This document shows, in pieces, positions 6,478-24,561 of a stretch of DNA of 32,248 bases. The notes under the pieces were generated by a model, which was not told the origin of the DNA, did no database searches, and was given only the letters and a program-made list of their open reading frames with translations. This stretch comes from a virus (Duplodnaviria; Caudoviricetes). The stretch is from positions 1-32,248 of the IMG/VR virus record IMGVR_UViG_3300011339_000283. One strand, written 5' to 3'. Both the position numbers and the translations under genes were made by a program. Every line of letters begins with the position of its first letter. Position 1 is the first letter of the stretch.

Positions 6478-9400
6478 ATGGACAGAGACAAGGCAATCCG
6501 CGCAGCGAAGCTGACGGCCAATCGCATCTCAAACGAGAGCGACCGCCTTGAAACATCGACCCAAGATGCCTCACATATTTTTGGGGATGGTGCGGCTTAC
6601 AAGTTTTACAAGCACCCCAAAAGTGGTGGGTACATCCAAATCCTTCAACGGCCAAGCGGCCCAGCCTCCGTAATTAACCTTGAAGTACCCGAAGAATTTA
6701 GAGGCCAAGGTATTGGTCAAAGACTTCAAGCTGAGGCCATGAAAAATCACCCATCACTTATGGGTCAGGTGTCATCTAAAGCAGCCGCAACAACAGCGTA
6801 CAGGCTTGGCCGTAGACCTTATGGAAACCCAGAGGCAACGCTTGATGATGTGTTTAAAGGCATAGACAGTGACAGTTCTGTCAACATGCTGACCCCCGAT
6901 GCACAACCAAAATCAAAAGGCGGCGCACTTGAGCTTGCCCGCCACGCCACGGCGGTGGGCCGCGCGGGCGGCCAAGTCGCCCCGTCAGAATACCTGCCTG
7001 ATGTCCCCCGCGCCGTCCATGCCGATGGTGGCCCCGCCATGTTTGAGGGCATTCACCCAGACCTTCGAGGCGAAAGCGGCGCACCGCTTGACCTGTATCA
7101 CGGCACGACACACCCAGAAGAGTTTGAGGCGTTTGACGATGCCAAGCTCGGCGCGCGTGACGCTGGCTTCTTTGGTCGTGGCCACTACCTATCGCCCGAT
7201 AAGGGAAATGCGGAAGAGTACGGCGAAGACGGCACCGTAATCGGCCCGCTCCACGCCGCATTGAAGAACCCATACGTTTGGGATGTGTCGAATGACATGA
7301 GGTCACACAGCACCCTGCGTGATCTTCAGTCTATGGGTATCATGCGTGACAAGAACGAACTAAGGCCTTGGGATAACCTGCAATCTCACCACGTCAGGCC
7401 ATTTATGGCGGAGATGCAAAAGCGCGGACATGATGGTGTGATCGTTAAGACTGGCCATGAACACCTGCCCAATGGCATCTCAGAGGTGGTGGCGTTTGAT
7501 CCACGGTCGATCAAGCACAAAGAGGCTGAGGTGTTTGACCCCACCGACCCCCGCATTCGCCGTGAGAATGGCGGCGAGGTTGAGAAAAAGCGCGACTTTA
7601 TGAGGGACAACCCTGGCGGCGAGTGGCTTGAGGGCAAGCGGGCAAGGGCTGCCCAGTACCCAGGCGATAAATTTATGATTGGTGCCACCACGGGCGTAAT
7701 TGGAGGCAGATCAAGCATGTTTTTGCCAACCAATGTCCTGAAGGGCATTACTGGTTTGGAAAACGAAGTGCGCCGTACTGGTGATCCTAGATACGATGCG
7801 TTGCTAGCCGACGCGCAGAGTGGTGGCTTTGACCCAGAGCAAAAGGGTAACAAGGTTGTGGTGGCCGTAAACCACTTTGGGCAGCCGTACCTCCTTGAGG
7901 GAAACACACGGGTGGCCGTGGCGCACTCCATGGGCATCCCAAAGGTCAAGGCCGAGGTCAGATACTGGAATGGCGCTGAGAATGTTGACGGCCCAATGCA
8001 CCCAGAAAACGTCTTTGACATGGCATCGGACAGCCCCGATGTCGCCAAAGCCACGGGTGGCCCCGTCATGGGCTATGTCCCGATGGCGTCCCTGACCGTT
8101 CCACGGCTGGCCGTTGCGCGCGCGCCAGTGCAGCAGCAGCAGGCGACCGTGGGCAAGTTCAGCGACTCCCTGAACTCTCTGATGGACACCGTCGAGGGCT
8201 TCAAGAAGAAGCCAGAGGCTGATGCCCCAGCGGAATCGCCCAGCGCAGCCAGTGAAGGTCACGCGCCTCAAGGCATGAGCGAGGCGGCGGCGGCAGCATA
8301 CGGAAAGCTGACTGACGCATGGGGGCAGCCCCTCACCGTTGTCAGCGCGTACCGCGACCCAGAGAAGAACCAAGAGGTTGGCGGCGCAAAGGGCAGCCAG
8401 CACCTGCATGGCAACGCATACGACATTGACACGTCAAAGCTTTCCTATGAGGATCGCCTGCGCCTTGCCGATGAGGCGTGGAATGCTGGTTTCAGGGGTA
8501 TTGGCTTCTATGATAACAACATGCACTTTGATGTTGGCGACCCCCGTGGTTGGGGGCCGTCTCACAGCAGGGACAGCATCCCAGAGTGGGCGCAGCCCTT
8601 TACTCAGGAGCGTTATGGCTATGCAGACGGAGGAAGCGCGATGAACGATGACAACCAAGACACCAGTGGCAGAAGCAATGTTGAGAGCCTCTCACTGGCT
8701 CGATCTTTGCGAAATATTGGCTCTGGCGGCGGAGATGATCGAGTCCAAAACCTTTTTGACAAGATCGCTGCTGGGCAACAGCAGGCGCAAAAAGCTTATG
8801 AAATGGCCCATTCAAACGGAGAGTTTGACGACTTCAAGATCGGCGATACGTTTGTTTACAAGCATTCAAAAAACCCCACCCCCATGAAGATAACTGGATT
8901 TTCGGTCAGCCGTGCGGAGTCATTCCCGCAAAGAAAGCGCATCTACAACAACCATGTCCCTGTACTGGAGATGGAAGACCAAGATGCTGGCAAGAAGGTC
9001 AACAAGTACCCTGTGGAGGCGTTCCAAGAAAACCTCCACAAGTACGATTTTGTCAGTGGAAAGCCGCGCGCCGTAAAGGCTGGCGGCGGATCGATAAACG
9101 ACGATAACCAAAACGGAGCAATGGAAAATGGCAATGCACCCATCAATTCTGCAACACGCCCCCAAGCGGGAGAACTTCCAAACGCAGGAGGAATACGAGG
9201 AGGCGCTGGCCTTCTTCAAACACAGAACGAAGCACCTCTTGAGGGACTCCCCCAAAAAATAGTCATCCCTCTGACGGGTCAGGTCATTCAGGCGGGTGCA
9301 GATCCTCGGATCAGGCAAGTTGCGCGTGACTACATGGCGCAGGCAGGGCTGTCATACAGCCCGCCGACAAAATACGCTAGGGTTGACCCGAAGCGGGCCG

Positions 9401-10173
9401 CGCGCATCGCCTCTGACTATACCGACATGGAAGACAATCCTGATGATCCCCTGACCAAAGCATCGTACAATGCAATGATTAAGGAAACGATGGATCAGTA
9501 TCACGCCGCAAAGAAATCTGGCTTGAATATTGAGTTTTGGAACCCCCGAAAGCAGGAAGATCCTTACAAAGCATCACCACGTCTTGCCACGGAAGACATT
9601 CGCAAGAACCACCACATGTGGGTATTCCCTACCTACTCAGGGTATGGAAGTGGTGAGCCGATCAGTGAGGATGACGCAAAGAAAAACCCCCTTCTCCAGC
9701 TTACTGGAGAGACGTGGAATGGCATCCCCGTGACCGTCAATGACGTGTTCCGCGCCATCCACGACTATTACGGCCACGCAAAAGAAGGGCTAGGGTTCCG
9801 CGCCGACGGTGAGGAAAACGCATGGCGCGCACATGCTTCAATGTTCTCGCCGCTTGCCCGCATGGCCATGACATCTGAAACCCGTGGGCAGAATAGCTGG
9901 CTCAATTATGGCCCGCATGGCGAGCATAACCGCAAGGCCCGCACCGAGGACACTATTTTTGCTCCACAAAAGATTGGGGTCATGTCCCACCTGTCCCATC
10001 ACGAGGGTGCCGAGGACTTTATCACGCCCGAAGACATCAGCTTCATGGCGTCAATTCGCAAAAGATTTGGCAAGAAACTGGGCGGCGCGGTTGAAAAGGC
10101 CCTTGCCTTAACACGCAGATTTACGAAGGATGGGAAGTCTGCTATAGATGCGCTCAAACCCAAGGGGAAGTGA
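6478..10173 (+). CDS. Large polyvalent protein: GNAT + ADP-ribosyltransferase + ParB-like + M15 peptidase + HDxxGH domain
   Basis: GNAT LEVPEEFRGQGIG (~6600-6815); ART LYHGT..FFGRGHYLS..GHDGVIV..SEVVAF (~7090-7560); ParB/Srx-like YLLEGNTRVAVAHSMG (~7565-8040); M15 SAYR..SQHLHGNAYD..MHFD (~8270-8610); FRAIHDYYGH..GEENAW..ETRGQNSW (~9230-10070). Confidence 0.85.
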   Translation: MDRDKAIRAAKLTANRISNESDRLETSTQDASHIFGDGAAYKFYKHPKSGGYIQILQRPSGPASVINLEVPEEFRGQGIGQRLQAEAMKNHPSLMGQVSSKAAATTAYRLGRRPYGNPEATLDDVFKGIDSDSSVNMLTPDAQPKSKGGALELARHATAVGRAGGQVAPSEYLPDVPRAVHADGGPAMFEGIHPDLRGESGAPLDLYHGTTHPEEFEAFDDAKLGARDAGFFGRGHYLSPDKGNAEEYGEDGTVIGPLHAALKNPYVWDVSNDMRSHSTLRDLQSMGIMRDKNELRPWDNLQSHHVRPFMAEMQKRGHDGVIVKTGHEHLPNGISEVVAFDPRSIKHKEAEVFDPTDPRIRRENGGEVEKKRDFMRDNPGGEWLEGKRARAAQYPGDKFMIGATTGVIGGRSSMFLPTNVLKGITGLENEVRRTGDPRYDALLADAQSGGFDPEQKGNKVVVAVNHFGQPYLLEGNTRVAVAHSMGIPKVKAEVRYWNGAENVDGPMHPENVFDMASDSPDVAKATGGPVMGYVPMASLTVPRLAVARAPVQQQQATVGKFSDSLNSLMDTVEGFKKKPEADAPAESPSAASEGHAPQGMSEAAAAAYGKLTDAWGQPLTVVSAYRDPEKNQEVGGAKGSQHLHGNAYDIDTSKLSYEDRLRLADEAWNAGFRGIGFYDNNMHFDVGDPRGWGPSHSRDSIPEWAQPFTQERYGYADGGSAMNDDNQDTSGRSNVESLSLARSLRNIGSGGGDDRVQNLFDKIAAGQQQAQKAYEMAHSNGEFDDFKIGDTFVYKHSKNPTPMKITGFSVSRAESFPQRKRIYNNHVPVLEMEDQDAGKKVNKYPVEAFQENLHKYDFVSGKPRAVKAGGGSINDDNQNGAMENGNAPINSATRPQAGELPNAGGIRGGAGLLQTQNEAPLEGLPQKIVIPLTGQVIQAGADPRIRQVARDYMAQAGLSYSPPTKYARVDPKRAARIASDYTDMEDNPDDPLTKASYNAMIKETMDQYHAAKKSGLNIEFWNPRKQEDPYKASPRLATEDIRKNHHMWVFPTYSGYGSGEPISEDDAKKNPLLQLTGETWNGIPVTVNDVFRAIHDYYGHAKEGLGFRADGEENAWRAHASMFSPLARMAMTSETRGQNSWLNYGPHGEHNRKARTEDTIFAPQKIGVMSHLSHHEGAEDFITPEDISFMASIRKRFGKKLGGAVEKALALTRRFTKDGKSAIDALKPKGK

Positions 10174-10174
10174 C

Positions 10175-12469
10175 ATGGCTGACATCAAAAAGGCAATGGA
10201 TTTGGTGTCTAAGTACCAAGATCCGCCAAGCAAGAGGATGCAGGGGTTTGATTGGCGCAAGCTGAGAGATGTTCAAGAAGAACTTGGCGGCATGACCGAG
10301 ATACCAAGTCACGTTGAAGATTTTGGCGCGTACATGGACGAAATGGCGCGCAAGGCCGCAACAACTGGACTTTCCCCGCGCGAATTGATCAAGGCCTACG
10401 CCATTACACGGGCAAGCATTCAGCGGCGTTCCCAGAACGTTGATAAATTACGTGCGTCTGGCCTTATATTGCCGCAGAGCGCCACTGGCAGCATTAGGCC
10501 AGAAGGGGCAATGGCCGAGTGGCTGAAGTCGCCAATGGGGCAACGCTACCTTGATGCTGCTGAGATGGGCAAAGTCAATCAAGAAGCTGTTGAACATGCG
10601 CAAGGTGTGATGAAACCGTTTGGGTTGGATACCGAAAGGGATGCTTTGCCGTGGGCCGCAAATAATTTGCATGACAAGCACCAAGCCGTTTCTGACATGG
10701 TGAAGAGGGCGCTGTCAGGCAACAGCCCTATTGCAGAGTGGCGCGAGTTTGCAAACGGATTGCGTGGGATTGGCACTGCAAAAGCTGGTTTTGTGGCGTC
10801 CGTTCTTGGCCGTGGCGATCAGTCCACACTTGATGCTCGCCAAATAAACCTTCACGTTGGAAAACCATCCAATAAGGATGAGAAACGTGTTCGTGACAAT
10901 GCTATTGCAAGGTCTGGATTTGACGCTGTTGACCGACTTTCCGCTCGTCAAACGGCACTTAACCCAAAGATGGACTCTGGATTGGAACCTTTCCGCCAAC
11001 ACCTGACCCACCACGCGACATGGGATAAGATTGGCAATGAGCAGACAACGCATAGCGACATTATAGACTCTATGAAGAACGCCAAAGACGGCGGTCGTAT
11101 TGGGTACGCCACAAAGGGTTCTGTTAAAGACGACAGTGAAGACCACCCTCTGGCCAAATCTTTTTTGAACGCAATACACGGAAGCGTGAACCAAGGAATG
11201 GTGCGGCAAGCTCTTGAGGCTGCTAAGACATCTGGGTTCATTCGAACAGGTGCTGACTTGATTAGGCGTGACCCCCGTTTACAAATTTCGCAACCTAAGT
11301 TGTCCAGCTTAAAGGATAGTAAAAAAAGCGGCCACTTGATCACACCATTTGGGGATTTTCAGGCTGAATTTGCACCCAAGAACAATCTGTCACCTCAGAA
11401 ATACGTCAACATTGAAAGGATGCAGAACGAGGGTGCCTACATCAGACCATTTGTTGGCGATAAGACTCCAGCAGACACCATTCTTTTAGGCCATAACGGC
11501 GTACCGCTTGTTGATCCAGTAAATCAAGAAGGTGGTGGCGACTATATGCGGTCTGATTACTCTCGAACTAACCAACCAACAGGCTGGAGATCGCGTGAAG
11601 GAGCGGCTAAGGGTATGCAGAGTCGTGTTGGCCAAGACGTTCCTGAAGGATCGCCAATCTACGGCGCTCACATGTTGATGGGCAACCCCGCCGCAGATAG
11701 CTCGCACATGCTTTTGCACTCTGTAATCAATCAAGTACCAAATTTGCCAATTGCAAAGCGTCACATTGATGCATTTGATGAGGAAATGCGTGAAAAGTTT
11801 CCGCATGACGAGAAATATCCAATGCCTTGGCCTGGAATTTTAAACACCAATGCGGTTCACGATTTCTTTTACAGGCAGCCAACCGTAGTTCGTGGCAAAA
11901 AGGGTCAGCCAGACATGATTCGCCCTCAACCTAGACCTGGCAAGCACGTTGCAAAATTTATCCAGAACATGGACAGTGTCCGCTGGCAATCAACTGGCTT
12001 TCCCAATGTTGGGTCTGCAAGATTTGCCAATATACACCCAGATTTGATGGCGGAGCCGCAAGGCGCAGTTGGATATGGCCTTACCCAACTTGACCCAAAG
12101 GGCGCACTGGTGGCAAACGATGAAATGCGCGCCCACGGCACCTACACTCACGGCATACCAACATTGGGATACGCTGGACGCTTCCGCGCATTGGTTCCTG
12201 CCGAGAAACTGTATGAGCGTGACGTAAAGAACGCTAATACTTCAACAGAAGCGCAGCAGACCCTTGCAACCAAGTTTCCTGCGATCAAAGTGGATCAGAG
12301 GGTGGTCGATTTGGTGAAGGGCGCTGAGGAAGAACGCATGAAGGAATACGGCTTCAAGCGTGGCGGCAAGGCCAAAAACATAGATCGTGCATTGAAGCTC
12401 ACTTCGATGTACAATGAAAGCGCAACAGGGACGCCTGGTAACCTCAGAGGATCGAAAAATGGACGCTAA
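10175..12469 (+). CDS. Two-domain polyvalent-type protein; N-terminal HhH DNA-glycosylase-like domain plus unknown domain
   Basis: ATG 10175 after AAGGGGAAG; LRGIGTAKAGF...LG....TLD (10760-10834); domains separated by AKDGGRIGYATKGSV. Confidence 0.75.
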   Translation: MADIKKAMDLVSKYQDPPSKRMQGFDWRKLRDVQEELGGMTEIPSHVEDFGAYMDEMARKAATTGLSPRELIKAYAITRASIQRRSQNVDKLRASGLILPQSATGSIRPEGAMAEWLKSPMGQRYLDAAEMGKVNQEAVEHAQGVMKPFGLDTERDALPWAANNLHDKHQAVSDMVKRALSGNSPIAEWREFANGLRGIGTAKAGFVASVLGRGDQSTLDARQINLHVGKPSNKDEKRVRDNAIARSGFDAVDRLSARQTALNPKMDSGLEPFRQHLTHHATWDKIGNEQTTHSDIIDSMKNAKDGGRIGYATKGSVKDDSEDHPLAKSFLNAIHGSVNQGMVRQALEAAKTSGFIRTGADLIRRDPRLQISQPKLSSLKDSKKSGHLITPFGDFQAEFAPKNNLSPQKYVNIERMQNEGAYIRPFVGDKTPADTILLGHNGVPLVDPVNQEGGGDYMRSDYSRTNQPTGWRSREGAAKGMQSRVGQDVPEGSPIYGAHMLMGNPAADSSHMLLHSVINQVPNLPIAKRHIDAFDEEMREKFPHDEKYPMPWPGILNTNAVHDFFYRQPTVVRGKKGQPDMIRPQPRPGKHVAKFIQNMDSVRWQSTGFPNVGSARFANIHPDLMAEPQGAVGYGLTQLDPKGALVANDEMRAHGTYTHGIPTLGYAGRFRALVPAEKLYERDVKNANTSTEAQQTLATKFPAIKVDQRVVDLVKGAEEERMKEYGFKRGGKAKNIDRALKLTSMYNESATGTPGNLRGSKNGR

Positions 12470-14174
12470 AAGCCTACGCGAGGCAATGAAGCAGAAGGCC
12501 AAGCGCCTCTGCGGAGCCACTTCGGAAAAAGTTGACGCATCGACGTTTACCCCAGCTGAGCCGCTGAACGCAGACGTGAAGACGGGCGCTCGCCCAGTCT
12601 CTCGCCGCGCATTCAAGGTCGGCGGCAAGGTGGATGGCGCTGAAGCCATGACCCACGCTGGCCGCACACCGCGCAAGTCTGGTGGAAAAACGGAATACGC
12701 CAACGCATTGGTGAACCGTAACGTCAAGGATGCCAATGAAGAGCGCGAAGGCATTAAGCACGTAGGTGGTTTTGCCAAAGGCGGTGTTCCAGAATACAAC
12801 GAAGAATCCGTCGAGAAAGCTATACAGTCTTCGCGCCAGAAGATTGGCAAGAAGGAGTCCAGCACGATTAAGTCCCTACTTCAGGGTCGCAAGGCATCTA
12901 TGCCGATGAAGAAAAATGACGATGGCAATACAGAGTACGCCAAAGGTGGACGTATCTCCAAAATGGGCGGTGGCCCGATGGACGCCAAAAAGGGTGAGGG
13001 CAAGATGACTGCCCCATTGGATCACTATCAGCCCCTGCCTCAAGAGGAGCGTTCAAACATCATCACCATGGATCAAGCTGACGAAATGATGCGCGAAGAA
13101 ATGCGCCGTCAGGGCGACATGACCCGCCGCAAACATGGTGGCAAGACCGAGGGTTCTGCCAAGGACATGATGGAAGACAAGAAGATGGCTGCCAAGATGG
13201 GCATGACCATGAAGGAATGGGAAGCATCCCATGCCGACAAGATGCACGACATGCCATCCAAGGGCCGCACCAAGAAGATGGGCGGCGGCAGCATGGGTTA
13301 CGCCGCTGGCGGAAAAATGAAGATGGTCGAGAAAGACGGCAAGAAGGTTCCATTCTTTGCCGCTGACGGCGTTGGCAAGATGGCAAACGGTGGCGGCCTG
13401 TACGCCAACATCCACGCCAAGCGCGAGCGCATTGAAGACGGCTCGAAAGAGAAGATGCGCAAGCCAGGTGCCAAGGGCGCTCCATCCGCCTCTGACTTCA
13501 AGGACGCAGCCAAGACCGCCATGAAAAAGGGCGGCGTTGCACCTCTTTTACCCCCCGTTAAAGAAAGAGATTTTCCAATTAGCGGCAGGGATATGCCGAC
13601 AGAAATGCGGCAAGAAAGTGATCGATACGCTGGCGATTTAACTCGCCGCAAGTCTGGCGGCAGCGCCATGAAGAAGGGCGGAAAGGCCATGCACCACAAG
13701 GACTGCATGTGCAAGGCCTGCGGTGGCGCTGCGATGTCTGAAGAGGGTGGCCGCACGGCCCGCAAGTCTGGTGGTAAGGTTGGCAAGAGCAACATCAGCA
13801 TCAACATCTACCCGCACACCGCCGAGAAGGCTGGCGCTATGCCCGTCCCACCCGCTGGTATGCCGCCCATGATGAAGCCACCAATGCCAATGCCTGCGCC
13901 CATGCCGTCGGCACCGCCCCCAGCCCACATGTCGCTCCCTCCAGGGCTGCAGCAGGCTCTGGCAGGCGCTGCGGGCGCTGGGCCTATGCCACCCGCTGGC
14001 GGTGGGATGCCTCAGCCCATGATGAACCGCCCCCCAATGCCTGCGCCTATGATGGGCCGCAAGGCTGGCGGCAGAGTGGAATACCCAATCACTGGCGGTT
14101 CTGGTGGCGGGCGCGCTCGCAAGGAAAAGGTCACAGCCTACGGCGAAAAGATGAACAAAGACCTCAGAAAGTAA
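12459..14174 (+). CDS. Low-complexity K/M/G-rich protein with many xxxGG repeats and Pro/Met-rich C-terminus; probable internal virion protein
   Basis: GAGG before ATG 12459; at least 15 GG motifs separating short peptides. Confidence 0.8.
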   Translation: MDAKSLREAMKQKAKRLCGATSEKVDASTFTPAEPLNADVKTGARPVSRRAFKVGGKVDGAEAMTHAGRTPRKSGGKTEYANALVNRNVKDANEEREGIKHVGGFAKGGVPEYNEESVEKAIQSSRQKIGKKESSTIKSLLQGRKASMPMKKNDDGNTEYAKGGRISKMGGGPMDAKKGEGKMTAPLDHYQPLPQEERSNIITMDQADEMMREEMRRQGDMTRRKHGGKTEGSAKDMMEDKKMAAKMGMTMKEWEASHADKMHDMPSKGRTKKMGGGSMGYAAGGKMKMVEKDGKKVPFFAADGVGKMANGGGLYANIHAKRERIEDGSKEKMRKPGAKGAPSASDFKDAAKTAMKKGGVAPLLPPVKERDFPISGRDMPTEMRQESDRYAGDLTRRKSGGSAMKKGGKAMHHKDCMCKACGGAAMSEEGGRTARKSGGKVGKSNISINIYPHTAEKAGAMPVPPAGMPPMMKPPMPMPAPMPSAPPPAHMSLPPGLQQALAGAAGAGPMPPAGGGMPQPMMNRPPMPAPMMGRKAGGRVEYPITGGSGGGRARKEKVTAYGEKMNKDLRK

Positions 14175-14445: not shown

Positions 14446-14835
14446 ATGCCCCATATGCCCATGAGCCACGAAGAAGACCCAAAGAAAAAGCTGCTGGAAG
14501 AGCTTGGTGACATCTCAAACGTTGAGTTGTTCCACAACCAAGTACTTCTTGCCGTCTACCTGCGGCCAGAAAAGACAAAATCTGGCCTGATTTTGACTGC
14601 AAATCACCTTGATGAAGATCGATACCAGTCAAAAGTTGGCCTGCTGGTCAAGCGAGGGCCTCTCGCATTTGAGCAGGACGGCAATTGGTTCACTGGAGTG
14701 ACCTTCCAAGACCACGACTGGCTCATTTTCCGCCCATCTGACGGCTGGTCTATCACCGTCAATGGCGTTTTGTGCCGCATTTTTGATGACATCAGCATCA
14801 AGGGCCGCGCACCCCACCCAGATTCCGTTTATTGA
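14446..14835 (+). CDS. GroES/Cpn10-like co-chaperonin
   Basis: LFHNQVLL, mobile-loop EKTKSGLIL, GLLVKRGP, DWLIF, ITVNGVLCRIFDDISI. Confidence 0.85.
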   Translation: MPHMPMSHEEDPKKKLLEELGDISNVELFHNQVLLAVYLRPEKTKSGLILTANHLDEDRYQSKVGLLVKRGPLAFEQDGNWFTGVTFQDHDWLIFRPSDGWSITVNGVLCRIFDDISIKGRAPHPDSVY

Positions 14836-17334: not shown

Positions 17335-18246
17335 ATGGCTGTTAATCTTTCAGCAATCAAAGACCTTCTCCTGCCAGGCTTGCGTGGTATCGAAGGCAAG
17401 TACGAGATGATCCCATCTCAGTACGATAAAATTTTCACGAAGCACAACTCCAAGATGGCGCTTGAGCGCACCGCAGAAATGCGCTTCTTGGGCTTCGCGC
17501 AGTTGAAAACCGAGGGCGGCCGTACCGCATTCGACAACGGCGCTGGTGAGCGTTTTATCTACAACCAAGAGCATACGGAAATCGGCTTGGGCTACGCGAT
17601 CACTCGCAAAGCCATTGACGATAACCTGTACAAAACGCAGTTTGCTCCCTCGAACCTCGGCTTGGTGGAATCGTTCCAGCAGACCAAGGAAATCTACGGC
17701 GCAAACATCCTGAACACCGCGACCACCTACAACGGTGCAATCGGTGGTGACGGCGTGGCTCTGATCTCGACCGCGCACCCAATCGATGGTGGCACGGTTG
17801 CAAACCGCCCAACGACCGATGTGGAATTGAACGAGGCGACCCTGCTGAACGGCATGATTGCAATTCGTACAAACTTCCGCGATCAGGCTGGCCTGAAGGT
17901 CTTCGCCCGTGGCCGTAAGCTGATTGTACCACCTCAACTGGAACCAGTTGCAATTCGTCTGACGAAAACCGAACTGCGCCCAGGCACGGCGGACAACGAT
18001 GTCAACGCGATCATGTCCACCGCTGGCGGCTTGCCAGAGGGCTACATGGTCAACGACTTCTTGACCTCGACTGGCGCATGGTTCTTGCTGACCAACATCG
18101 ACGGCCTATCCTATATGGAGCGGGTAAAGTTCGAAACGGATATGCAAGTGGACTTCGTTACGGATAACTTGCTCGTAAAAGGATATGAGCGTTATTCTTT
18201 CGGATACTACAACTGGCGTTCGATCTTCGGCTCGTTCCCGACCTAA
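17335..18246 (+). CDS. Major capsid protein (HK97 fold, Mu gpT-like)
   Basis: AAGGAG RBS; KTEGG, GYAITRKAIDDNLY, DGVALISTAHP, KLIVPPQL, AWFLLT, ERYSFG...WRSIFGS. Confidence 0.9.
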   Translation: MAVNLSAIKDLLLPGLRGIEGKYEMIPSQYDKIFTKHNSKMALERTAEMRFLGFAQLKTEGGRTAFDNGAGERFIYNQEHTEIGLGYAITRKAIDDNLYKTQFAPSNLGLVESFQQTKEIYGANILNTATTYNGAIGGDGVALISTAHPIDGGTVANRPTTDVELNEATLLNGMIAIRTNFRDQAGLKVFARGRKLIVPPQLEPVAIRLTKTELRPGTADNDVNAIMSTAGGLPEGYMVNDFLTSTGAWFLLTNIDGLSYMERVKFETDMQVDFVTDNLLVKGYERYSFGYYNWRSIFGSFPT

Positions 18247-18255
18247 GCGAAAAAC

Positions 18256-18277
18256 GGAGGGGGCCTCGGCCCCCTTC
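18256..18277 (+). terminator. Strong hairpin after MCP (weak U-tract; attenuator or stabiliser)
   Basis: GGAGGGGGC-CTCG-GCCCCCTTC, 9 bp. Confidence 0.6.
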
Positions 18278-18282
18278 ACCAT

Positions 18283-18356
18283 CTAGGATCAATCGGACGA
18301 TCTGACCGCCCTAGCGGACTTTGCACAGACAGACCGTCCCTATCGTGCAAAAGGAG
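18283..18356 (+). ncRNA. Candidate double-pseudoknot structured RNA leader
   Basis: Four complementary pairings: 18283-287/18310-314; 18295-304/18330-339; 18306-308/18315-317; 18320-326/18345-351; abuts AAGGAG RBS. Confidence 0.6.
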
Positions 18357-18362
18357 CCTCAA

Positions 18363-18821
18363 ATGGGCAAGACTACTTTCACTGGCCCGATTCGTGCGGG
18401 CAATATTCTGAACACCTCTGGCACCACACTCGGCCAAGACGTTAAGAACGTTGGCTCGGTTGTCATGGTTCAGACCTATCCAATCACGCAGGCGCTGACG
18501 GCAACTGCACTGGGTACCACCATTGTGCTGCCTGCCAACAGCCATATCTTGAACATGCAGATGGTTGTGACTGCCGTATGGAGCGGTGCCGCAACCACGT
18601 TCAGCGTTGGCACTTCAGCCACCTCGACTGAACTTGTCTCTGCCGCTGCTGGCGGCACCATCGGTGTTATCGGTCTGAACCCAGGTTCTGACGCAACACG
18701 CACCGCCAACTGGGACGACACTGGCACCACCGACAAGCGCATCTTTGTTCTGTCGGCAAACACGGGAACGGGCGTTGGCACGATCACCGTCCGTTACATC
18801 CAAGCGCACGATCTCGCATAA
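18363..18821 (+). CDS. Virion structural protein (minor capsid/decoration candidate)
   Basis: AAGGAG before ATG 18363; MGKTTFTGPIRAG start; beta-rich T/G/A composition; follows MCP. Confidence 0.7.
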   Translation: MGKTTFTGPIRAGNILNTSGTTLGQDVKNVGSVVMVQTYPITQALTATALGTTIVLPANSHILNMQMVVTAVWSGAATTFSVGTSATSTELVSAAAGGTIGVIGLNPGSDATRTANWDDTGTTDKRIFVLSANTGTGVGTITVRYIQAHDLA

Positions 18822-19618: not shown

Positions 19619-20221
19619 ATGACCACCAGCGTTTTCTATGTGTACGAACACTGGCGGCTTGACCGTGATGAATGTTTTTACGTTGGTAAGGGTAAGGGCA
19701 TTCGCGCATACAAGATGCGTGACCGTAATGCTCATCATCGGGCAATTATGGGTAAACTATCCCGCGAAGGTAGCGGCATGGAAGTGCGCATGGTTGCGAC
19801 AGGCTTGACTGAGGATGAGGCATTTGCGATTGAGGTTGAACGTATTGCTTTTTGGCGTGAGGCTGGCATTGATCTTGCAAATCGCACTAATGGCGGAGAT
19901 GGTGTAAGCGGCTTGAAGATGTCGGATGAAGCTAAGGCCAAAATGTCCGCTGCCAAACTTGGGAAGAAGCAAAAACCAGATGTTGTAGCTAGGCGCATTG
20001 CCCCCCTAATTGGCCGCAAACAGCCGCGAGAGGCAATAGAGATGGGTGCTGAAAAACGCCGTGGTAATCCGCTTTCGGCAGAGCATAAAGCTAAAATTTC
20101 AGCCGCACACACAGGAAAGATTGTAAGCGATGAGACGAGGGCTTCTCTGAGCGCTGCCAATAAAGGTAAACCGTGGAGTGAGAAGCGCAGGGTTGCGGAG
20201 AATACCAGGAGGGAGCTATGA
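19619..20221 (+). CDS. Free-standing GIY-YIG-like homing endonuclease with NUMOD3 repeats
   Basis: FYVYEH..FYVGKG..R, EAFAIE, LANRTNGGDG, repeats SDEAKAKMS / SAEHKAKIS / SDETRASLS. Confidence 0.85.
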   Translation: MTTSVFYVYEHWRLDRDECFYVGKGKGIRAYKMRDRNAHHRAIMGKLSREGSGMEVRMVATGLTEDEAFAIEVERIAFWREAGIDLANRTNGGDGVSGLKMSDEAKAKMSAAKLGKKQKPDVVARRIAPLIGRKQPREAIEMGAEKRRGNPLSAEHKAKISAAHTGKIVSDETRASLSAANKGKPWSEKRRVAENTRREL

Positions 20222-20898
20222 CCACTAGTGGTGCATACACGTTTAATCCAGGATTGGGAGAAATAGTTCTCTATGCTTATCAAAACATAGGCATACGTCC
20301 AGCTTCTATTTTGCAAGAACACATGGAGACAGCAAGAATGGCTGCCAACATGATGCTTTCAAGATTTTCAAATCAGGGCGTAAACCTTTGGGCGGTTGAC
20401 CTGATCACCACGCCACTGATTGAGGGCCAGACCACCTACGCCGTAGCGCCAAACACAGTCATGATCCTCGACGCATATACCACGACCGATCAGGGCATCG
20501 ACCGTGTCATCATGCCAATCAGCCGTACAGAGTACGCATCATACCCGAACAAAGAACAACAGGGCTTCGTCACGTCCTTCTGGTATGACCGCCTCATCTC
20601 GCCCACAATCACGCTGTGGCCCGTTCCTGATGGCACCTCGTCCACGATCTTGAAGTACTATCGTGTGCGCCAGATCCAAGACTCAAATCTCCAAAATAAC
20701 GAAAATGTCGAAATTCCCTATTTGTGGCTGGAGTGCTTTGCTGACGGACTGGCATACCGACTGGCGCGCATCTGGAACCCGCAAATGGCCGTGGCACTCA
20801 AGGCTCAGGCCGATGAGAGCTATGCCATCGCATCCAACCAGAACGTGGAGAATGTCGGCACGTACATCTCACCAATGTTGGGGTCGTATTTTAGATGA
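20218..20898 (+). CDS. Head-tail adaptor protein (paralog 1)
   Basis: ISRTEYASYPNK, WYDR..ITLWPVPD, EIPYLWLECFADGLAYRLA. Confidence 0.7.
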   Translation: MTTSGAYTFNPGLGEIVLYAYQNIGIRPASILQEHMETARMAANMMLSRFSNQGVNLWAVDLITTPLIEGQTTYAVAPNTVMILDAYTTTDQGIDRVIMPISRTEYASYPNKEQQGFVTSFWYDRLISPTITLWPVPDGTSSTILKYYRVRQIQDSNLQNNENVEIPYLWLECFADGLAYRLARIWNPQMAVALKAQADESYAIASNQNVENVGTYISPMLGSYFR

Positions 20899-21548
20899 AA
20901 AAGTTTTACGTATATGAGCATTGGCGACCCGATCTTGACCTCCCGTTTTATGTGGGCAAGGGTAGTGCGTCTAGGTTTGACCCAAATCGAACCAGAAACA
21001 AACATCACAGCAATATAAAGAACAAGCTAAAGAAGCTTGGAATGTGCGTAGAGGTACGCATGGTTGCATCTGGCCTTTCTGAGGATGACGCATTGCGCTT
21101 GGAGATAGAGCGAATTGCTTTTTGGAAAGAACGCAACGTTGAACTTTCAAACAAAACTGCTGGCGGTGACGGTTTGAAAAGCCCGCCTGAAGACGTATTA
21201 GAAAAAATGAGGGCTGCATCCAAAAAACGTTGGTCTGCGCCTGATTCAAGAGAGAAGCACTCCATTGCCACCAAAATTGGCATGGATAATGATGCTGTAA
21301 GGGCAAAGTGTTCTGGCGGGCGGGCGGGAAGAAAAGCATCTTTAGAAACGAAGGCAAAGATGTCTATTTCAGCTATGGGTCATCCCGTATCCGAGGAAGC
21401 CCGTAAAAAAATATCCAAGGCACACCTTGGCAATACCTATGGATCAAAGACCCGTGGAAAGCCAAGGCCAAAAATGTCTGATGACACAAAGGCAAAAATG
21501 AGAGAGTCTCAACGTGCGCGGCGCGAACGAGAAAAGGCTTTGTCGTAA
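20895..21548 (+). CDS. Second GIY-YIG-like homing endonuclease with NUMOD3 repeats
   Basis: FYVYEHWR..FYVGKG..R, VRMVASGLSEDDALRLE, LSNKTAGGDG, SLETKAKMS / SEEARKKIS / SDDTKAKM. Confidence 0.85.
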   Translation: MKKFYVYEHWRPDLDLPFYVGKGSASRFDPNRTRNKHHSNIKNKLKKLGMCVEVRMVASGLSEDDALRLEIERIAFWKERNVELSNKTAGGDGLKSPPEDVLEKMRAASKKRWSAPDSREKHSIATKIGMDNDAVRAKCSGGRAGRKASLETKAKMSISAMGHPVSEEARKKISKAHLGNTYGSKTRGKPRPKMSDDTKAKMRESQRARREREKALS

Positions 21549-23704: not shown

Positions 23705-23935
23705 ATGGAAGGCATTTTTGCATACTGGCCGATTGGCGTCAGCTTTGTAGCTGTGGTGGTGTGGCTTATCCGCCTTGAGGCTGGCAGCGTTGAGAACGGT
23801 AAAGAGATCAAGCGCCTGTGGAACCAGCGCAAGGAAGACATGGATGCGGCCCAACGCTCGCGCGGTGAAACCAACTCCATGCTGGCCGAAATACGAGATG
23901 ACATCAAAGCCCTAATCGCAAAGGTGGGAAAATGA
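23705..23935 (+). CDS. Holin-like protein
   Basis: Single N-terminal TM (WPIGVSFVAVVVWLI) plus coiled coil, directly before endolysin. Confidence 0.6.
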   Translation: MEGIFAYWPIGVSFVAVVVWLIRLEAGSVENGKEIKRLWNQRKEDMDAAQRSRGETNSMLAEIRDDIKALIAKVGK

Positions 23936-24561
23936 AGCTGTACACGCACTTTTCAAATGTTCCAAAGGATGAATGGCGCTGGAAAAGTTTCAGCCCGCGC
24001 GAGATTGCCTGCAAAGGTACGGGCGCGCTAGGCGTAAATGAGGACGCTCTGGACAAGCTGCAGGCTCTGCGCAACAGCCTAAAGCGCCCCCTGCTGTTGA
24101 CTTCTGCGTACCGCAGCCCAGAACATAACCGAGCCGTTGGCGGCGCAAAGAACAGCCAGCATATGCAGGGTATCGCATTTGACGTGCGCATGGAAAACCA
24201 AGACCCCGAACAATTTGAGGCCGCAGCGCGCGCCGTAGGCTTTACGGGGTTTGGCTATTACCCCAAGCAGGGATTTATCCACATTGACACAGGCCCAAAA
24301 CGCTCGTGGGGGACGCCGTTTAAGACAGGCGCGACGGGGCTGACAGTGGCCGAGCCAGAGCGTGATAACGTGGCGCAATCCACCACAATGCAGGCATCTG
24401 CCGTGCAGATCGTATCGGGCGCGGGCGCGGGCGTCGCGGCAGTCGGCGCGTTGGATGGCACGGCTCAGATTGTGGCGCTCGTGTTTGCGGGCGTGGTCGT
24501 GCTGGCCGCTCTGTGGATCATGCGTGAGCGCCTCCGTAAGTGGGCAGATGGTGACCGCTGA
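23932..24561 (+). CDS. Endolysin, peptidase M15 family, with C-terminal membrane segments
   Basis: SAYRSPEHNRAVGGAKNSQHMQGIAFD, FIHID; hydrophobic tail IVALVFAGVVVLAALWIM. Confidence 0.9.
   Translation: MKLYTHFSNVPKDEWRWKSFSPREIACKGTGALGVNEDALDKLQALRNSLKRPLLLTSAYRSPEHNRAVGGAKNSQHMQGIAFDVRMENQDPEQFEAAARAVGFTGFGYYPKQGFIHIDTGPKRSWGTPFKTGATGLTVAEPERDNVAQSTTMQASAVQIVSGAGAGVAAVGALDGTAQIVALVFAGVVVLAALWIMRERLRKWADGDR

Follow-up and report, generated by a model that had tools for sequence, protein, structure and literature searches.

What does a compact, self-pairing RNA do immediately before a virion gene? This question is raised by positions 18283 to 18356 of the window, that is, of the whole stretch of 32,248 nt analysed here. 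This linear contig is viral, has a completeness of 56%, and encodes a terminase, an SU10-type portal, a GroES-like protein, and capsid and adaptor proteins. Taking all the readings considered below together, the element very probably controls, in cis, the translation of the predicted capsid cement gene that follows it. The gene upstream (17335..18246, plus strand) encodes a major capsid protein of 303 aa (phrog_371) that is approximately 40% identical to the capsid proteins of pelagiphages HTVC023P and HTVC027P, roseophage CRP-901, and phage DSL-LC04, with two of its homologues annotated as 'Bacteriophage Mu, GpT'. The motif starts at 18283, 37 nt past the stop codon of this Mu-gpT-like major head gene. 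A GC-rich hairpin (18258..18275), which has no U-run on the plus strand and is terminator-like on the minus strand, ends 6–7 nt 5' of the motif and is likely a leaky terminator or a stabiliser. The regulated gene (18363..18821, plus strand, start codon ATG at 18363) encodes a protein of 152 aa, predicted from structure modelling to be a capsid cement protein of jelly-roll fold whose N-terminal arm (TTFTGP) is extended.

Analysis of the surrounding genes revealed several further features. A polyvalent protein of 1231 aa with ART-PolyVal (ADP-ribosyltransferase) and peptidase M15 domains is encoded after the portal gene (6478-10173), and a second M15 peptidase is located at 23932-24561. The gene at 12414-14174 encodes a Lys/Gly/Met-rich, low-complexity protein of 586 aa with repeated KGG-like units, which gave only a short PHROG match of unknown function. 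The GroES-like co-chaperonin gene (14446-14835) is found in all 19 of the genomes compared. Two NUMOD3-type homing endonuclease genes lie in the virion module of the window (19619-20221 and 20895-21548), and in four relatives (L007, L027, L104, and L133), genes apparently similar to NUMOD3-type endonucleases are positioned between the capsid gene and the motif. In MW202675 (L407:1653-1726), a tRNA gene (Rfam, 68 bits) is located within the capsid module, upstream of the capsid gene.

The element, on the plus strand throughout, consists of four helices. The 5' strand of the first pseudoknot helix (PK1, 18283..18287) pairs with 18310-18314 and is missing in a minority of relatives, such as L013. 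The central helix P1 is formed by 18295..18304 and 18330..18339, comprises 10 bp including one A.C mismatch, and shows changes on both sides in 9/9 pairs. It encloses a P2 hairpin (18306..18317), in which 18306-08 pairs with 18315-17 and the PK1 3' strand lies within the loop, and a third-arm loop (18320..18327), in which 18320-18326 forms the 5' strand of the second pseudoknot helix (PK2). The 3' strand of PK2 (18345..18351), a helix with changes on both sides in 6/6 pairs, ends on the first base of the Shine-Dalgarno (SD) sequence, which was assigned from the sequence at 18351..18356. The helix order is thus a b c a' c' d b' d'. The SD begins 12 nt after the end of P1, and the outer helix leaves it outside. 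These four helices, the crossing of the central helix by the first and the last, and the ending of the motif at the ribosome-binding site had been proposed from the sequence alone, and all were verified against the sequence and its coordinates. The CCG/CGG pairing of the small hairpin also held; its loop, given in the original prediction as the five nucleotides CCTAG, consists of six (18309-14).

The invariant core of the element, which the original prediction overlooked together with the possible C18319-G18328 closing pair, is composed of three GAC strands at 18304..18306 (GAC1), 18317..18319 (GAC2), and 18328..18330 (GAC3), the last of which lies 32 nt before the ATG. In the predicted junction, G1-C3 closes P1 and C1-G2 opens P2, leaving one adenine per strand, while C2-G3 may close a one-pair third arm; modelled in this way, the three GACs are predicted to form a near three-fold-symmetric junction. 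All three GACs are exact in 245/264 parsed leaders, although 7/9 matches were permitted. Among the parsed leaders, G1-C3 is replaced by U-A in three and by A-U in two and is broken in about five; C1-G2 was a parser requirement. C2-G3, predicted as C18319 with G18328 in the window, is U-A in two leaders, which represent a single compensatory lineage, and is broken in one, so from sequence comparison this third junction pair is weakly supported.

Each arm of the junction reaches one tail of the RNA, with the P2 loop pairing with the 5' tail (PK1) and the third-arm loop pairing with the 3' tail (PK2). Comparison of HTVC023P-like and HTVC027P-like phages (L408:3490-3564 and L419 versus L409:3970-4043 and L436) revealed that the PK1 and PK2 sequences are swapped between them, suggesting that the two arms are equivalent. 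The PK2 loop cores (18320-18327 in the window, and in relatives) are often self-complementary, with a 4-nt palindrome in 8/16 distinct loop words (12% by chance), several of which are register variants of one word. Loop-loop dimers through these self-complementary loops are possible.

Taken by itself, the window sequence folds unremarkably: the nested minimum free energy has a z of -0.98, and 37/200 shuffles were as good. When crossing was allowed, the 21 Watson-Crick pairs of the window were matched by 2/1000 dinucleotide shuffles, a post-hoc statistic. The decisive evidence for the structure is comparative. In a sequence-only MAFFT alignment of 75 representatives (members less than 80% alike), in which P1, P2, PK2, and one junction pair were scored, 95.3% of 1412 cells were paired, a level reached by 0/500 shuffles, compared with 20–37% for slid controls, and 18/19 pairs showed changes on both sides; in this alignment, the 3' ends were trimmed with respect to the fitted PK2, pairs of PK1 could not be counted, and 51/75 representatives carry the loop word fixed by the DNA search pattern. 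Analysis of 238 leaders revealed a PK2 score of at least 5 in 236 (23% with swapped partners) and a PK1 score of at least 4.5 in 216 (27% with swapped partners). In a GAC-anchored alignment, the top 21 APC-corrected column pairs were predicted pairs in 21/21 cases. These counts lean toward the structure, because the parser accepted only leaders with paired P1 and P2 and with the junction adenines, and because the registers of the pseudoknots had been fitted; the swapped and slid controls offset this bias in part, and none fully corrects for shared descent. The comparison of relatives that had been proposed as a check thus brought out covariation in P1, P2, PK1, and PK2, and on this comparative sequence evidence the four-helix double-pseudoknot element is confirmed as real and conserved.

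The element is present in many lake and ocean phages. Searching with a DNA pattern gave an estimated 1,200 or so matches in IMG/VR, and in the 120 viral stretches examined, the motif lies before a TTF[ST]GP-type gene in 115. When loci were selected by the protein alone, 103/160 carried the element under the strict expression, and four more carried it with a shorter loop. The cultured phages HTVC023P, HTVC027P, CRP-901, and DSL-LC04 carry the family, and copies in which the PK2 strands are wholly rewritten came from cultured phages. In 38/136 protein-selected type A leaders (the type found in the window), another gene separates the capsid gene from the motif, as in HTVC027P. The motif follows the downstream gene even when parted from the capsid gene. 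As the fold in two of the architectures described below takes in both the Shine-Dalgarno sequence and the AUG, the motif is assigned to the cement gene as a leader rather than to the 3' side of the capsid gene. The element occurs once per genome (5/5 genomes in one set and 21/22 positive genomes in another). One 90-kb record with inverted terminal repeats (G018, locus L010) holds two identical copies on opposite strands, probably through assembly duplication. A group of genomes (G006-G012; loci L022, L023, L039, L057, and others) encodes capsid proteins approximately 91% identical to that of the window and lacks the motif, and most of them retain the cement gene behind a short hairpin. The alternative that the conserved inverted repeat is a DNA operator was rejected, since the repeat spacing varies (12–17 nt after GAC3, with one outlier at 21) and the repeat sequence covaries.

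Among 72 representatives, -10-like hexamers near the motif start gave 44 counts at gaps of 4–13 nt versus 12 at 14–44 nt, and in 24 of the 72 the hexamer lies 4–9 nt before the motif. In the configuration of the window, with a hairpin within 12 nt of the motif, 0/22 leaders carry a -10 hexamer at 4–9 nt. A promoter-like site was looked for before the motif in the window and none was found, so this copy is likely reached by read-through. Two RNA-library contigs from two studies (X1 record 5 and X3 record 14) span the capsid end, the motif, and the cement start; since assembled contigs reveal neither strand nor ends nor a single transcript, they were set aside as evidence. In bacterial genomes, 10 of 120 pattern matches passed the pairing filter, and eight of these precede the same phage gene. 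Host assignment from these genomes was abandoned, as 110/120 matches failed the filter and the eight right-gene matches lie in assemblies of unrelated phyla, likely as mis-binned phage DNA.

Classification of 210 unique protein-selected leaders from 443 loci revealed four architectures built on the same core. The parser assigned 136 leaders to type A, 24 to type B, 18 to type C, three to other forms, and 29 to none, and it parsed 12/420 shuffled leaders as the motif; L071 is probably a false type A parse. By-eye review of the 29 unassigned leaders identified seven as degenerate type A or hybrid type D and 21–22 as truly without the motif. Type A possesses approximately 25 bp of helix, and of 238 leaders of this type, 157 have a PK2 that overlaps the SD, 54 one directly adjacent to it, and 27 one at a distance of 1–4 nt; in the window, PK2 covers 1 nt of the SD. 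In type B, which is the type of the Rfam motif Mu-gpT-DE, the P1 3' strand is the SD itself, and the loop is paired to the AUG and the codon after it. The loop and start covary in 20/20 leaders (GCCA with AUGGC in 13/13 and CCCA with AUGGG in 7/7), and 4/24 type B leaders have neither word. In type C, the SD lies within the third-arm loop, and GAC3 is 0–2 nt before the AUG. Type D (L547, L663, and L671) combines the type A stem and PK1 with the type B loop, bridging A and B. P1 of types B and C is often just 3–5 bp, and some arms close with a single pair. In types B and C, the SD and the AUG thus both disappear into the fold; in type A, the initiation signals are crowded by it. Different architectures are found before proteins that are well-supported sisters (L555/L558, L509/L514, and L671/L681). 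In a FastTree tree of 134 of the 205 downstream proteins of 130–185 aa, with near-copies dropped, six architecture labels need 25 changes (shuffled mean 42), and presence versus absence needs five.

AlphaFold modelling based on 85 homologues gave a jelly roll for the protein of ORF 18363-18821 (pLDDT 84), with residues 1-30 forming an extended arm of lower confidence. The top structural match is the R4C baseplate trimer (Z 11.9), approximately 1 Z unit above the best cement match; the cement proteins of GP4 (Z 10.8), KHP30 (10.4), Pam1 (9.9), and KHP40 (9.4) follow, with rmsd values of 2.5–3.0 over 108–113 aligned residues. Foldseek placed Pam1 (7eel_H) first, with an E-value of 3.7e-4, and the DSL-LC04 homologue is annotated as a cement protein. 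A PDB sequence search with the window protein returned no match at E<=1, and the cement proteins of Pam1, GP4, KHP30/40, and A1002, which share its single jelly-roll fold, are 12–21% identical to it. On this modelling, the product is predicted to be a jelly-roll capsid cement protein. Cement proteins of this fold are described as trimers at three-fold axes (PMC9698820; PMC13730344), and those of Pam1 and KHP30 as placing an N-terminal arm on the capsid E-loop (PMC9698820); by analogy with these homologues, the window protein would also be trimeric. It is not basic, with 7 K+R and 7 D+E in 152 aa. The proteins encoded downstream vary in length from about 74 to 228 aa; beyond the N-terminal segment they have little in common, and this segment is kept in motif-free phages (about 21/210 leaders). 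Among the ORFs downstream of L161-L280, the same TTF[ST]GP N-terminus is joined to very different bodies, some with GNITGNVT-like repeats. Sequence comparison suggests that the TTF[ST]GP proteins are an exchangeable capsid-surface module.

The original prediction had suggested a riboswitch-like or protein-binding translational switch. In keeping with this, the double pseudoknot is conserved, reaches the ribosome-binding site, and most likely controls translation. Since the fold of types B and C buries the initiation signals and that of type A crowds them, the folded state is likely OFF. The weak helices of types B and C, together with the fixed GACs, indicate that a stabilising binder is likely needed. 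No gene family specific to motif-bearing genomes was found when 12 of these were compared with seven motif-free genomes (four near-complete and three partial) by single-linkage BLAST clustering, a method that can miss small or fast-evolving genes, and a dedicated regulator gene was rejected as a candidate on the same comparison. Given this result and the single copy per genome, a protein partner would be expected among the core virion proteins or those of the host. By analogy, the symmetry of a cement trimer would match that of the junction, and the N-terminal arm is the one shared part of the downstream proteins, so the simplest binder would be the gene's own trimer.

We therefore put forward, as a tentative reading that may well prove wrong, that the element is a translational OFF switch bound by surplus cement-protein trimer. 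The leader would fold into the three-GAC junction braced by two pseudoknots, and the folded state would block initiation, which is strongly suggested for types B and C and less so for type A. Surplus cement trimer might then bind the leader and lower cement translation, the evidence pointing weakly to a protein as the binder and to this trimer in particular, and the conserved N-terminal arm might, again on weak indications, switch between capsid and RNA. Capsids would titrate the trimer away, and cement production would in this way follow the supply of capsids. The fuller version, in which the three-fold cement trimer reads the pseudo three-fold GAC junction, so that a decoration protein represses its own message and counts free capsid sites, is possible but doubtful. 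Against cement feedback stand the non-basic protein, its variable body, the persistence of the N-terminal arm without the RNA, the baseplate trimer as top structural match, and the weakly supported third junction pair; against a switch in the window stand the single paired SD nucleotide and the apparent ability of type A to fold unaided. Among the titles and abstract openings covered by our literature search, no capsid decoration protein was described as a translational repressor.

Other explanations draw on the same observations. The fold alone might fix a lower translation rate and protect the message end, acting as a ligand-free attenuator and 5' cap with no partner. The approximately 25 bp of type A helix would suit this role, and the motif, which in many relatives directly follows a -10-like hexamer, would cap a transcript there; however, none of the 22 leaders in the window configuration has such a hexamer at 4–9 nt, and there the element would be internal to a longer message unless processed. 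Such a role, which we consider unlikely, also leaves unexplained why three GACs are kept while all helices are rewritten and why the B and C forms are marginal. The element might instead be an operator bound by another protein, whether the major capsid protein, the scaffold, the GroES-like protein, or one from the host, RNA-binding or ribosomal, that recognises GAC repeats. The genes in question occur in nearly all motif-bearing genomes, and the capsid protein is more uniform than the cement bodies, but the same genes are found in motif-free genomes, including those with the capsid proteins approximately 91% identical to that of the window, and the isolate hosts span SAR11, Roseobacter, and a gammaproteobacterium; we regard this operator as unlikely.

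In its size, its pseudoknot over the SD, and its conserved junction bases, the element is typical of translational riboswitches. The adenine-lined junction might hold a small molecule or an ion, and the overlap of the structure with the SD or start codon (1 nt in the window) is the geometry of an expression platform. A riboswitch nevertheless appears quite improbable, as the element is single-copy and tied to one structural gene family, in 8/10 filter-passing bacterial-genome matches the gene that follows is again this phage gene, so that no ligand is indicated by a metabolic gene nearby, and no Rfam riboswitch matched. The original prediction had also listed a new ribozyme or a processing element, which would here free the cement message from the capsid message. 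The compact three-way junction, conserved core, permuted forms, and double pseudoknot are what such an RNA could present, but in types B and C the catalytic helices would consist of the SD and the AUG themselves, many copies already lie just after a likely promoter, no ribozyme family matched, and neither a hammerhead nor an HDV core is present in the sequence. These options are disfavoured by the sister architectures, and we consider them very improbable. The preferred reading remains the OFF switch bound by surplus cement trimer.

How phages adjust the amount of an accessory capsid protein to the number of capsids is little known. One report ranks the HTVC023P-type group first in abundance among known marine viral groups (10.1101/2019.12.14.876532), and the reading by the cement trimer, if true, would span a phage group that is among the most abundant in oceans and lakes. 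As an RNA fold, a symmetric junction of three GACs with two pseudoknots that can be swapped is unusual, and its small size should permit its structure to be solved directly.

Comparison with Rfam connected the window RNA to a named motif. In the window and in 20 type A loci, scanning with Rfam yielded chance matches only, none at the motif, and Mu-gpT-DE (RF03012; 53 positions, Rfam type 'Gene; sRNA') had no match at E<=10 in the window contig, the gathering threshold being 49 bits. Five type A genomes searched with RF03012 gave 0/5 over the cut-off and none at the motif. In CRP-901, the same slot matches Mu-gpT-DE at 72.3 bits. Scanning of 13 marine type B-D loci with RF03012 gave eight over the cut-off and two more below it, while the seven type A loci in that scan gave no match. 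The earlier statement that no Rfam family could be assigned thus holds for this copy; in relatives, the same slot is Mu-gpT-DE, with which the three-GAC core is shared.

Both RNAs occupy the slot after a Mu-gpT-like capsid gene and before a TTF[ST]GP gene. Like the window RNA, the Mu-gpT-DE consensus possesses three GACs, an inner hairpin between GAC1 and GAC2, and an outer helix closed by GAC1 and GAC3. They differ in that the Mu-gpT-DE outer helix is made with the SD and the motif ends at the AUG, neither of which is found in the window, whereas in the window P1 has 10 bp and P2 has 3 bp, a further pseudoknot is formed on the 5' side, and the partner of PK2 lies upstream of the SD. The Rfam structure of Mu-gpT-DE has nine pairs and no pseudoknot and stops at the AUG, thereby missing the loop-start pairing of type B. 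A core model (R2; 35 positions, built from 46 type A leaders with no Mu-gpT-DE-type copies) landed on the slot in 11/15 type B, 2/2 type D, 1/1 degenerate, and 0/9 type C loci, with four off-target matches in 93 kb and three stray matches in an 87-kb control; its E-values are rough, and only one of the 11 type B matches was below 0.01. A full-length type A model (R1) detected no type B or C leader. Since R2 missed all nine type C leaders, the link to type C rests on the parser, with its 12/420 parsed shuffles. From sequence comparison, the window RNA is likely a homologous, elaborated form of Mu-gpT-DE, though outside formal membership. This orphan Rfam motif would thereby gain a gene, a direction, and a testable job. 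Named as a capsid-gene downstream element, it emerges here as one of four interchangeable cement-gene leaders, the commonest of which in the samples (type A, 136/210 protein-selected leaders) is absent from Rfam.

For Mu-gpT-DE, the relevant entries of Rivas 2020 give 9 Rfam, 11 ZWD, and 12–13 CaCoFold pairs and file the motif under loop and non-Watson-Crick covariations rather than new pseudoknots. In six supplementary files of Fremin 2023 (PMC10690425), the motif is not named, and type A could be among the candidates of that study. Our literature search, at the level of titles and abstract openings, returned nothing on this RNA.

HDV-like ribozymes form a nested double pseudoknot in the order P1, P2, P3, P1.1, P4, and the hammerhead core strands are CUGANGA and GAAA. 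The window RNA resembles these ribozymes and SD-sequestering pseudoknot riboswitches in its compact size, its double pseudoknot or three-way junction, and its conserved junction bases, but differs from them in helix order, shares no core with them, and has no Rfam match. The original prediction was accordingly right that the topology is not HDV-like, as the helix order indicates, and that a hammerhead core is lacking, the junction strands being three GACs. A precedent for self-repression of this kind is T4 gene 32: gp32 reportedly controls translation of its own message by way of a pseudoknot lying immediately before the gene (PMC10690425). Both are phage pseudoknots upstream of a gene; however, gp32 is a single-stranded nucleic-acid-binding protein, whereas the window gene encodes a predicted cement protein without known RNA binding, and its RNA is a three-way junction with two pseudoknots.
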